13,766 bases of DNA, taken from the IMG/VR virus record IMGVR_UViG_2585427710_000002, positions 1-13,766 of that record; one strand, 5' to 3'. The first letter of the stretch is position 1, and the number at the start of each line of letters is the position of its first letter. The stretch comes from a virus (taxonomy: Duplodnaviria > Heunggongvirae > Uroviricota > Caudoviricetes). Below are positions 6,001 to 9,000 of this stretch, one piece after another. Position numbers: made by a program.

Positions 6001-9000
6001 TCGCCAAGTAGCCAATTCATAAAATGCCATTTCTAAATCCCCCGGCTCCAGTGCCGGGTTTTATTTACTTAATTACACAGTCGCATATCCTGAAGTAACA
6101 CATCTATAGCTAACTTCACAGCGAGATCATCCAATTCATCATGGTGAAGCACTCGGATCATTCCCGCAATAGCATCTGCTGAAATAGCTTCCCCAGTAGC
6201 AATAACCTCAAGCAACGCCCCCCCTAGAATTTCGACTACCCGCTGGTGCAACACACCAAATTCCCCTTCGATTAACATGCAATCACCCATAACAATCAGC
6301 CTTTCCCCCTTGAAAATATCACGCGGATACCACAAAAAATAAAATATTTTTGTTATCAGTCATTTATAATGTTTTTCATAAAATGATAAATATAGTTATT
6401 GCACAACCAGATAACTTAGGTTATCTTCAATTCAACAGCAGGACGCTGGAAGCCAAACGGAACAGATTGGCCGGCTCTTTAACATTGATGGACTCTCAAC
6501 CTAACCGTTGAGACCAAAATCTAAGTGGTTTTGGGGATGACGAGAATTTCAGTTGCAAGGCCGCGATCGAGAAGAAAAACACCTCGACGCGTCATACACC
6601 AAAGCCACTTAAAGGAGACCATCATGGTAACCGTAATCTGGAAAGAATCCAAAGGTACGGCAAAAAGCCGCTATAAAGCTCGCAGGGAAGAACTTATTGC
6701 AGAGCGGCGCAGTAGTGAAAGACTGACACGGAAGATTGCGCTAAAGATCTCTGGTTGCGTCAGAGCAGACAAAGCAGTATCACTCAGCAGCCTTCGCAAC
6801 AAGAAGGCAGAAGAAGTCGAGCGAAAAAACAGAAGTACTTATTACAAGGATTCAAACCCATTAGGAAACAAAATACATGCAGTTCAAAAAATAAAATTGT
6901 ACAGTAAACCACCGTATGGACTTATTGAGTATGCTTATGGTGAAAAAGACTATTTATGTTAATCCTAATCGCGGACAAAACAGAAAAGTATCTGACAGAA
7001 GCCTTACATCTCGAGACAGAAGGAGGATAGCGAGATGGGAAAAGAGAATAGCATATGCATTAGAAAACGGTATAACACCTGGATTTAATGCTATAGATGA
7101 CGGTCCGGAATATAAGATTAATGAAGACCCAATGAACAAAGTTGACAAAGCATTAGCAACACCATTTCCTCGAGATGTTGAAAAAATTAAAGATGAAAAA
7201 TATGAGGATATAATGCACAGAGTTGTTAACCACGCACACCAACGAAATCCAAATAAAAAATGGTCATAACCCACTTCGATAGATTTTATTGTTTGGACTA
7301 ACAAAAATTACTACCGCAAGCCACGCAGTGAAACGGGTGTGACTTGTGTTGGTCGCCAGAAAATGAAATTAGGCAGCAAACCACTTATTTGAGGTGAGAT
7401 ATGACAAAATCATGGAGCGTACCTTTTCCTGAATCAGAAACTGAACATGATGGAATGCCTGTTTTCTGGAGATTCCAGGCGACAGTTGAAGAAGATGGGA
7501 TAAAAATATTCGCACTTCAATATATAGCTTTTCATCAGACAGAGCATTATGCATGGTTGGTTCCTGCGCATTGGATTGTTAATTTTAAACCAGCACCAAA
7601 TCAGTGGTTACAGGAATGGAAACAAAGGAGAAATAGATATGCAATTAAGAAAGTAGCAAAAAATGCAGAAAGATCTTTTGCATTCCCAACGAAGAAACTT
7701 GCCATTGAAAGTTTATTGCGCCGGAAGAAATACCATTTAATGAGAATCAAACAAGATTTGGCTGTTGTATCAACTCTTGTTGATGGTATGAAGAATATTG
7801 ATACATCAACACCAGATATTGAATATAACTTTGGACACAACCAAGAAACAGAAAATTGGGTATTTTATTAGTACGAATAAGCACTGTGTATTCATTCCAA
7901 CGAGTGAATACACGGAGCAATATCGCTCGTAACTAAACAGGAGCCGACTTGTTCTGATTATTGGAAATCTTCTTTGCCCTCCAATGTGAGGGCGATTTTT
8001 TATCTGTGAGGATATGAACAGATGTCAAACATCAAAAAATACATCATTGATTACGACTGGAAAGCATCAATAGAAATTGAAATCGACCATGACGTAATGA
8101 CAGAGGAAAAACTTCACCAGATTAATAATTTCTGGTCAGACTCTGAATACCGACTCAATAAACACGGCTCTGTATTAAATGCTGTATTAATCATGCTGGC
8201 GCAACATGCTCTGCTTATAGCAATTTCAAGCGACTTAAATGCATATGGTGTTGTGTGTGAGTTCGACTGGAATGATGGAAATGGTCAGGAAGGATGGCCT
8301 CCAATGGATGGTAGCGAAGGAATAAGAATTACCGATATCGATACATCAGGAATATTTGATTCAGATGATATGACTATCAAGGCCGCCTGAGTGCGGCTTT
8401 ACCGCATACCAATAACGCTTCACTCGAGGCGTTTTTCGTTATGTATAAATAAGGAGCACATCATGCAATATGCCATTGCAGGGTGGCCTGTTGCTGGCTG
8501 CCCTTCCGAATCTTTACTTGAACGAATCACCCGTAAATTACGTGACGGATGGAAACGCCTTATCGACATACTTAATCAGCCAGGAGTCCCAAAGAATGGA
8601 TCAAACACTTATGGCTATCCAGACTAAATTCACTATCGCCACTTTTATTGGCGATGAAAAGATGTTTCGTGAAGCCGTCGACGCTTATAAAAAATGGATA
8701 TTAATACTGAAACTGAGATCAAGCAAAAGCATTCACTAACTCCCTTTCCTGTTTTCCTAATCAGCCCGGCATTTCGCGGGCGATATTTTCACAGCCATTT
8801 TCAGGAGTTCAGCCATGAACGCTTATTACATTCAGGATCGTCTTGAGGCTCAGAGCTGGGCGCGTCACTACCAGCAGATCGCCCGTGAAGAGAAAGAGGC
8901 AGAACTGGCAGACGACATGGAAAAAGGCCTGCCCCAGCACCTGTTTGAATCGCTATGCATCGATCATTTGCAACGCCACGGGGCCAGCAAAAAAGCCATT

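Follow-up and report, generated by a model that had tools for sequence, protein, structure and literature searches.

A stretch of 13,766 nucleotides (nt) from a Caudoviricetes virus (IMG/VR record IMGVR_UViG_2585427710_000002, positions 1 to 13,766, referred to below as the window) carries a small open reading frame (ORF) on its minus strand at 6069..6290, between the repressor gene cI and the left operator and promoter (oL/pL). Judged from its pattern of conservation, this small ORF is a genuine gene under purifying selection, and comparison with other phages showed that it is the conserved pL-side boundary of the cargo slot equivalent to lambda rexAB. The predicted fold of its product resembles that of the Escherichia coli connector proteins AriR/YmgB. 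By analogy with these proteins we favour, at a probability of roughly one in two for the full chain, a reading in which the gene would encode a connector-like protein which is expressed from the prophage and modulates a node of host regulation.

The ORF was described in a sequence-only reading of this DNA as an acidic minus-strand ORF between cI and oL/pL, convergent with cI and divergent from pL, and the sequence and coordinates confirmed this arrangement. An ORF scan found it to be the sole ORF between the hairpin downstream of cI and oL, with no competing plus-strand ORF of at least 40 amino acids (aa) lying over it. The same scan returned 108 ORFs of at least 40 aa in the whole window, so that the length of the ORF alone is not above chance, and the case for a gene therefore rests on conservation. 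The product matched PHROG 3946 (annotated as "hypothetical protein", unknown function) with E = 1.9e-29, and both frame and length are kept from Escherichia to Yersinia. Within the family, pairwise ratios of non-synonymous to synonymous substitution rates (dN/dS) lie at 0.08-0.16, and synonymous sites are saturated relative to the nearest subfamily. Conservation of the frame in related prophages had been set beforehand as a test on which the ORF was to stand or fall, and it held, with dN/dS of about 0.1. No Rfam family was matched in 5850-6700 at E <= 1, and a reading of the region as a known small RNA (sRNA) or riboswitch is therefore not supported. The product has a computed isoelectric point of 4.4 and a computed net charge of -8, within a family range of -8 to -15. 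Despite its conservation, the gene is unannotated in PA28 (NC_041935, KP682381), epsilon34, ST104, g341c and the LC6454xx phages encoding Stx1a.

The ORF offers two in-frame start codons. Read from the ATG at 6290 it has 73 codons, a form annotated in phage 06-3462, while the second ATG, at 6278, opens the 69-aa coding sequence (6069..6278, minus strand, stop codon TAA at 6071..6069) that is called by RefSeq (WP_024174011.1); RefSeq and GenBank thus disagree on the start. The optional four-codon N-terminal extension MGDC (6279..6290, minus strand), which gives 73 aa if the ATG at 6290 is used, has no counterpart in the homologues, and the homologues P0009 and P0010, together with proteins from Salmonella, Klebsiella and Yersinia, align from the methionine at 6278. 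Because the second ATG is the start in every homologue and the RefSeq form has 69 aa, the likely coding sequence is 6278..6069, and of the 73-aa ORF proposed earlier the ORF is retained and the length is shortened. Shine-Dalgarno-like motifs could be read from the minus strand before either start, AAAGG at 6304..6300, 9 nt before the ATG at 6290, and GGGTGA at 6288..6283, 4 nt before the ATG at 6278; in the homologues GAGGG stands 7 nt ahead of the conserved start.

An exhaustive hidden Markov model (HMM) search covering 1.8 billion cluster representatives recovered the family as 27 clusters at 50% identity, with every member 49-128 aa in length; the collection at 90% identity has 635 clusters of the family, nearly all titled "hypothetical protein" (one UniRef cluster carries the label DUF2767). 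The family is present in just 56 of 50,697 phage records, with no P22 or lambda record among the matches, and the gene is therefore dispensable. Carrier records include phages encoding Stx, the Salmonella phages epsilon34, ST104, g341c, SPN9CC, MG40 and S107, and Klebsiella prophages, and further carrier genomes were found in Enterobacter, Trabulsiella, Rahnella and Yersinia, so that the hosts of these lambdoid and P22-like carriers comprise Escherichia, Salmonella, Klebsiella, Enterobacter, Trabulsiella, Rahnella and Yersinia. No paper on the small gene was found in the literature searched, and queries with the RefSeq accession and with DUF2767 were likewise without results; nor did the searchable literature contain an earlier account of the fixed site at the edge of the hotspot between cI and N, or of the link to the AriR/YmgB fold.

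The position of the gene was compared in ten other loci, which have unrelated repressors, unrelated N genes or Rac-like left operons, and different hosts, and which span E. coli, Salmonella (P22-like and siphoviral), Klebsiella, Rahnella and Yersinia. One layout recurred in 10/10: the pL operon runs leftward and the small gene rightward beside oL/pL, followed by zero to three cargo genes on the cI strand and then by cI and cro. Among this cargo are BstA in MG40 (E = 1.7e-124 with the PADLOC library) and in S107, P63C-domain proteins, a ParA-like ATPase, a BamE-like lipoprotein and an IS1 insertion, as well as a HicA/HicB-like pair with a 147-aa unknown protein in the Yersinia locus and several unknown proteins in further relatives. 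In the coordinates of the individual loci these slots lie at 3219-4142 (L005), 3850-4617 (L006), 5849-6721 (L004), 3265-4341 (L007), 4367-5473 (L032) and 3230-3956 (L008). The interval between cI and N has been described as a rexAB-equivalent mosaic hotspot for abortive-infection genes, RexAB and BstA among them (PMC8585504). Because cargo stands between cI and the small gene, the latter flanks the rexAB slot and is not in it, and the earlier placement of the gene at the position of lambda rexAB had to be given up, since in the ten relatives the rex-equivalent cargo, encoded on the cI strand, separates cI from the small gene. In the window the slot is empty and is represented by a 125-nt non-coding spacer (5917-6040) running from the cI stop codon to the hairpin. 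This spacer is limited to 50 E. coli genomes of this immunity type, with no detectable similarity elsewhere in E. coli, and may be a remnant left when a cargo slot lost its content. A slot bracketed in this way by conserved sequence amounts to a compact defence or accessory hotspot.

An AlphaFold2 model built with 19 family sequences consists of three amphipathic helices, with a mean predicted local distance difference test (pLDDT) score of 83, a core above 90 and no membrane segment. The best Foldseek match in the PDB was YmgB/AriR (2OXL), with a probability of 0.92 and template modelling (TM) scores of 0.58/0.64, and the model has the three-helix fold of 2OXL. The family HMM matched the K-12 paralogues YmgA, YcgZ and AriR at one helix-1/helix-2 motif common to all of them, hhG-x-A/I-V-x-x-L...S/N-x-x-x-L/I, with per-sequence p values of about 2e-5 to 5e-4. 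Alignment of the family profile with an AriR/YcgZ/YmgA alignment by hhalign gave P = 5.8e-5 and a score of 28.0, while 200 column-shuffled control templates scored 9.0 on average and 21.4 at most, and the reversed template scored 14.3; the outcome was kept with a 78-sequence profile. We consider it probable, from fold and profile taken together, that these proteins form a distinct phage-borne family which shares the fold of AriR/YmgB and is remotely homologous to it. Other searches gave little: the window protein had nothing significant in Pfam or NCBIfam, five family members had no match in PADLOC at E <= 1 (the same library detects the neighbouring BstA), a sequence-profile search of the PDB gave a best E of 0.29 and a fold search of viral structures (BFVD) a best E of 1.4. 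The remote-homology search that had been put forward as a check on the ORF was thus blank in Pfam, NCBIfam and PADLOC and informative in the YmgB/AriR fold match and the weak but non-random profile similarity.

YmgB/AriR, YcgZ and YmgA of K-12 (PF10798; 2OXL) are small "two-component-system connector" proteins of the cytoplasm which work by binding to other proteins, and the phage proteins resemble them in fold. AriR and YcgZ have an N-terminal extension of 25-30 residues which the phage proteins lack, and the phage proteins are much more acidic than the YmgB/AriR family. Moreover, the phage gene is single and stands beside pL, whereas the K-12 ycgZ-ymgABC genes form an operon under BluR. A second helical protein of 69 aa, DUF2767/YdhZ ("FumD", PF10965), has a similar hhG-x-hV motif, and a collinear weak match was seen for P0028 (E = 0.03 over 48 residues). 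The PF10965 gathering score of 20.7 bits was reached by none of the 78 members, of which a single one had even a weak match, at 14.7 bits (E = 0.032); the NCBIfam FumD match had E = 0.064, and hhalign against a single FumD sequence gave P values of 0.02-0.06.

The small gene is preceded by a promoter-like region, read from the sequence as an extended -10 accompanied by a weak -35. The predicted extended -10 TGATATTTT (TGaTATTTT) lies at 6321..6313 on the minus strand, with a transcript start predicted near 6306, and is identical in the immunity variants of 96.5% identity; the aligned site in relatives is TGcGATACT (Salmonella and other loci) or TGcCATACT. A candidate weak -35 or UP-like A/T block, ATTTTATTTTTT (6334..6345, minus strand), stands 16-18 nt upstream of the -10. 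TTTATTTTT is kept, with unchanged spacing, in the Enterobacteriaceae loci L003-L007, L029 and L030, and the relatives show the order TTTATTTTT, 16-18 nt, then TGcGATACT or TGcCATACT upstream of the gene. Invariance of the ATTTATT motif across all ten aligned loci was considered and rejected, as its distance differs in Yersinia and Rahnella and the match there is a possible alignment artefact; because the Yersinia and Rahnella copies stand at a different distance from the start, the motif is taken as conserved within the Enterobacteriaceae loci only. The promoter-like extended -10 noticed upstream of the ORF in the sequence-only reading is borne out by its conserved position in relatives, and the distance of about 25 nt given between it and the ribosome-binding site applies to the second of the two candidate sites, the first (AAAGG) being only 8 nt away.

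The repressor operator is a 14-bp palindrome, ATAACnnnnGTTAT, present three times in the right operator oR (5135, 5160 and 5184) and twice in oL. A palindrome scan placed oL2 (ATAAATATAGTTAT) at 6386-6399 and oL1 (ATAACTTAGGTTAT) at 6411-6424, both on the plus strand, and pL was read from the same strand as a -35 TTGCAC (6399-6404), 17 nt and a -10 TATCTT (6422-6427), with a transcript start AACAGCAGGACGC (~6434) that is kept in the distant relatives L003 and L004. These strong operators lie at least 65 nt upstream of the small-gene -10, the nearest, oL2, being centred about 86 nt upstream, and no operator with two or fewer mismatches overlaps the small-gene promoter in the window. A third strong operator over the ORF promoter was considered and discarded, only half-matches with three mismatches being found. 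One of these, at 6343-6356, would centre about 43 nt upstream of the predicted small-gene start. In lambda, cI bound at OR2 activates PRM from a comparable position, and a parallel between the two is speculative. L003 contains a third operator-like palindrome, which reaches to about 50 nt upstream of the predicted start.

Downstream of the gene lies a GC hairpin, CCCGGC-6 nt-GCCGGG with a 6-bp stem (6041-6058), followed directly on the cI strand by the T-tract TTTTATTT (6059-6066, plus strand). The plus strand accordingly reads hairpin then UUUUAUUU, and the ORF strand hairpin then GGAUUUAG, with only two to three U. Because the U-tract is found on the cI strand only, the hairpin is the canonical terminator of the cI transcript, and the ORF would have in it at most a weak terminator or a 3' stabiliser; the bidirectional terminator proposed earlier is upheld for the cI strand and not for the ORF strand, which lacks a U-tract. 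A stop codon, an A-rich run and the CCCGGC hairpin also follow the gene in L004, L005, L007, L029 and L030.

In its place within the interval from cI to pL/N the small gene resembles rexAB and bstA. Those genes, however, are encoded downstream of cI, on the cI strand, and use the cI promoter, whereas the small gene is read from the other strand, next to pL, and in relatives is found together with such cargo, and it encodes a single soluble protein as against RexA with the membrane protein RexB, or the 307-aa BstA. Neither of the two features of a RexAB-type gene, co-transcription on the cI strand and similarity to a known defence protein, was found, nor were two adjacent co-transcribed small genes as in a toxin-antitoxin pair, the neighbours varying between phages. 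In position and orientation the small gene has a parallel in sieB of Rac, a gene of the same slot that points away from the kilR (pL) operon and towards the racR-ydaG-ydaF repressor operon. SieB (162 aa) was rejected as a homologue (hhalign of the family profile against Rac SieB, P = 0.76), as were YdaF and YdaG of Rac, which have no similarity to the family. In the Rac locus (L012, 2906-3660) the sRNA KilS is annotated in the pL leader between kilR and sieB. The concept of morons goes back to Juhala and Hendrix. With morons as described by Owen et al. 2020 (PMC7067206) the small gene shares the unit of promoter, ORF and terminator, an orientation antisense to the lytic operon and presence in a minority of otherwise similar phages; typical morons are scattered and phage-specific, whereas the small gene keeps one site across genera. 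Structurally it is what a moron would be, with its own promoter (of predicted activity) and terminator and with presence or absence among related phages.

We envisage the locus as an accessory cassette of the "moron" type that works autonomously, placed where the variable cI-N region borders on pL; its working parts would be the predicted extended -10 (6321..6313), the 69-aa ORF (6278..6069) and the hairpin boundary (6041-6058). Expression would take place from the prophage in lysogens, since the strong cI operators do not reach the promoter and the gene runs antisense to the lytic pL operon; an orientation antisense to lytic operons, combined with an own promoter, is typical of accessory loci that are expressed in lysogens (PMC7067206). 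The product would be small, acidic and cytoplasmic, with three helices, and would be related at a distance, as a phage-borne form, to the YmgB/AriR-YcgZ-YmgA connectors; it would act by binding a host regulatory protein and not by binding DNA or by enzyme activity. As the phage partners, cI and N, vary from phage to phage, a conserved target in the host is more plausible than one specific to the phage. By analogy, this regulator may be of the Rcs or SpoT type: overproduced YmgB activates the Rcs phosphorelay without need of RcsF or of the RcsC periplasmic domain (PMC11709261), and YmgB binds SpoT's TGS-helical domains directly and raises guanosine tetraphosphate (ppGpp), AriR Arg74 being required for SpoT binding (PMC10704370). 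The outcome would be a shift in host envelope-stress, biofilm, acid-resistance or stringent physiology.

Several points weigh against this reading. Arg74 of AriR corresponds to Val in the phage protein by manual alignment of helix 3, where there is no tool alignment, so that SpoT is not a given target. Only one of the five AlphaFold models was of high confidence (83 as against 60-73), and hhalign returned a probability of 66%, falling to 45-50% under other column settings, with helices 1-2 only aligned. Small three-helix folds can converge. None of the 78 family members reached PF10798 or any other Pfam family at the gathering score, which for PF10798 is 22.3 bits (the controls, K-12 AriR and YcgZ, scored 90 and 25 bits), and neither the window protein nor the 78 members had a PF10798 match even at E <= 1-10; because no member reaches the gathering score, the family is not filed under PF10798. 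With regard to expression, the extended -10 is a weak match to consensus and received no score in a simple TTGACA/TATAAT scan, the half-matches to ATAACnnnnGTTAT with three mismatches at 6343-6356 and 6366-6379 leave cI control possible, and three OL sites are reported for a PA28-type phage in PMC4587872. A transcriptome of any carrier phage was not found in the literature searched.

Much of the evidence on expression also bears on an alternative in which the gene is an early lytic or host-takeover factor, silenced in the lysogen by cI through a weak third operator or through looping between oL and oR and fired together with pL upon induction or infection; its acidic product would then inhibit a host defence or enzyme, as small acidic inhibitors from phages do. 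The gene directly adjoins oL/pL, the weak operator-like sites at 6343-6356 and 6366-6379, the third palindrome of L003 and the three OL sites reported for PA28-type phages could supply the repression, and strong acidity, with net charges of -8 to -15, extends across the family. Against this, no strong operator covers the -10 or -35 in the window, an antisense orientation with an own promoter is the pattern of an accessory locus (PMC7067206), the fold matches a regulator-binding family and not known DNA mimics, and most lambdoid phages do without the gene; we regard such a lytic role as unlikely. Less probable still is a regulator internal to the phage, which would bind cI, Cro, N or CII/CIII, or whose convergent transcription would modulate the cI operon. 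The gene does lie inside the immunity module and co-travels with it in E. coli (block 4477-6845), and read-through of its weak ORF-strand terminator would be antisense to cI and the cargo. The family nevertheless has as neighbours cI and N genes that are unrelated to one another, and also Rac-like left operons without N, which speaks against a specific partner among the phage proteins, and the strong purifying selection on the protein shows that the product matters and not transcription alone.

The function suggested in the sequence-only reading, that of a lysogen-expressed superinfection-exclusion or toxin-antitoxin-like gene in the rexAB slot, fared worse and now appears very improbable. The interval between cI and N is a known hotspot for abortive infection (PMC8585504), Rac holds sieB in the same position and orientation, and activation of Rcs and capsule, if it occurs, could lower the adsorption of other phages; yet the small gene has no partner gene, no membrane segment, no match in PADLOC, Pfam or NCBIfam and no similarity to SieB, its fold points to YmgB/AriR, and true defence cargo (BstA, HicAB) occupies a separate slot between cI and the gene. 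That the ORF is no gene at all, being a chance ORF or a conserved non-coding boundary element, could draw on its absence from the annotation of several curated phage records and on the frameshift in 1/50 E. coli genomes, but this explanation is effectively refuted by the dN/dS analysis, with its ratio of about 0.1 and saturated synonymous sites, alongside the conserved length and frame and the lack of any Rfam match.

The preferred connector-like reading can be extended, although the extension is tentative and, taken jointly, doubtful. In it, prophages across the Enterobacterales, both lambdoid and P22-like, would carry at a fixed pL-side site a branch of AriR/YmgB which rewires a host node, for example Rcs or SpoT/ppGpp; capsule, biofilm, acid resistance or prophage stability would be altered as a result; the chromosomal ycgZ-ymgAB genes would have descended from such cassettes; and the carriers would include the Stx1a and Stx2a phages of Shiga toxin-producing E. 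coli (STEC) of serogroups O157, O145 and O45. The chromosomal bluR-bluF-ycgZ-ymgAB region was proposed by Tschowri et al. to be phage-acquired, and classical O157:H7 strains lack the complete unit (PMC3509220).

By the annotation of near-identical records, the whole window represents early-region DNA from a lambdoid Shiga-toxin phage. The 741 nt surrounding the small ORF are 100% identical to a set of Stx1a-converting phages and 99.9% identical to the Stx2a phages PA28 and 06-3462, and matching prophages occur in 50/5,426 complete E. coli genomes (serotypes O145, O157:H7, O45:H2 and others). The annotated order is replication genes, cII and cro on the minus strand, cI on the plus strand, the small hypothetical gene on the minus strand, and then N and the rest of the pL operon on the plus strand, the operon including cIII, kil, gam and bet past N. 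The cI-type repressor (5209..5916, plus strand), convergent with the small gene, has a helix-turn-helix domain and an S24 peptidase domain and is annotated as XRE-family or CI-like. The N-like antiterminator (6624..6962, plus strand; annotation of PA28 and 06-3462), divergent from the small gene, is the first gene of the pL operon, and boxA GCTCTTTAAC could be read near 6476 from the sequence and its relatives. A hypothetical ORF of 112 aa annotated at 6931-7269 (plus strand) overlaps, in a different frame, the final 32 nt of N. At the left end of the window, on the minus strand, three Rfam matches at gathering level, C4 antisense RNA (RF01695, 233-316), isrK (RF01394, 342-418) and the c4 a1/b1 target element (RF03163, 379-431), make up a P1/P7-type antisense-RNA immunity module (233-431). 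The usual target of control in such modules is an antirepressor. A Lambda cIII thermoregulator (RF01804, 84 bits) lies at 8450-8508 on the plus strand, 5' of cIII.

In the E. coli carriers the cassette moves with the whole immunity block 4477-6845, which is 96-99% identical in all of them. Between block variants the cassette is unusually invariant, differing only by two adjacent non-synonymous changes in 315 nt, with several changes in the flanking operator region, and elsewhere the block differs by about 3.5% between two allele types (loci L017, L018, L035 and L036). The window allele encodes Gly-Gly-Ala at codons 19-21 (6212-6224), which makes a run of seven G, and the other allele encodes Gly-Val-Ser. 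Among the 50 genomes the latter was found in 29/50, sequence identical to the window over the stretch in 18/50, and a single change from the window allele (a substitution, a leader deletion or a frameshift) in a further 3/50; in genome 2014C-3338 a 1-nt insertion frameshifts the small ORF (1/50), and in RM12275-C1 1 nt is deleted from a G-run in the 5' leader. A phase-variation tract at the G7 run (C7 on the plus strand, ~6217-6223) was considered and rejected, as the run is interrupted in the common allele (29/50 genomes), and of the two indels one, a T insertion, stands beside the run and the second is found in the 5' leader.

For the architecture of these phages, the comparison yields an anatomical rule, in that the variable cargo between cI and N is bracketed by cI and, in the phages considered here, by a conserved cassette and hairpin; such a rule aids the automated discovery of defence cargo. 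If the product were inert or purely phage-internal, it would amount to one more small conserved hypothetical phage gene. If, however, it is a prophage-expressed connector, it would be an unrecognised lysogenic-conversion regulator in Shiga-toxin phages and in many Klebsiella and Salmonella prophages. Its characterised relatives control capsule/Rcs signalling, curli and biofilm, acid resistance and ppGpp, traits which are relevant to the persistence of STEC. By analogy with other Stx phages, ppGpp also bears on prophage induction. A phage-borne relative of AriR/YmgB in STEC prophages would, moreover, fit the idea of Tschowri et al. (PMC3509220) and offer a concrete candidate for the proposed phage origin of E. 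coli ycgZ-ymgAB.

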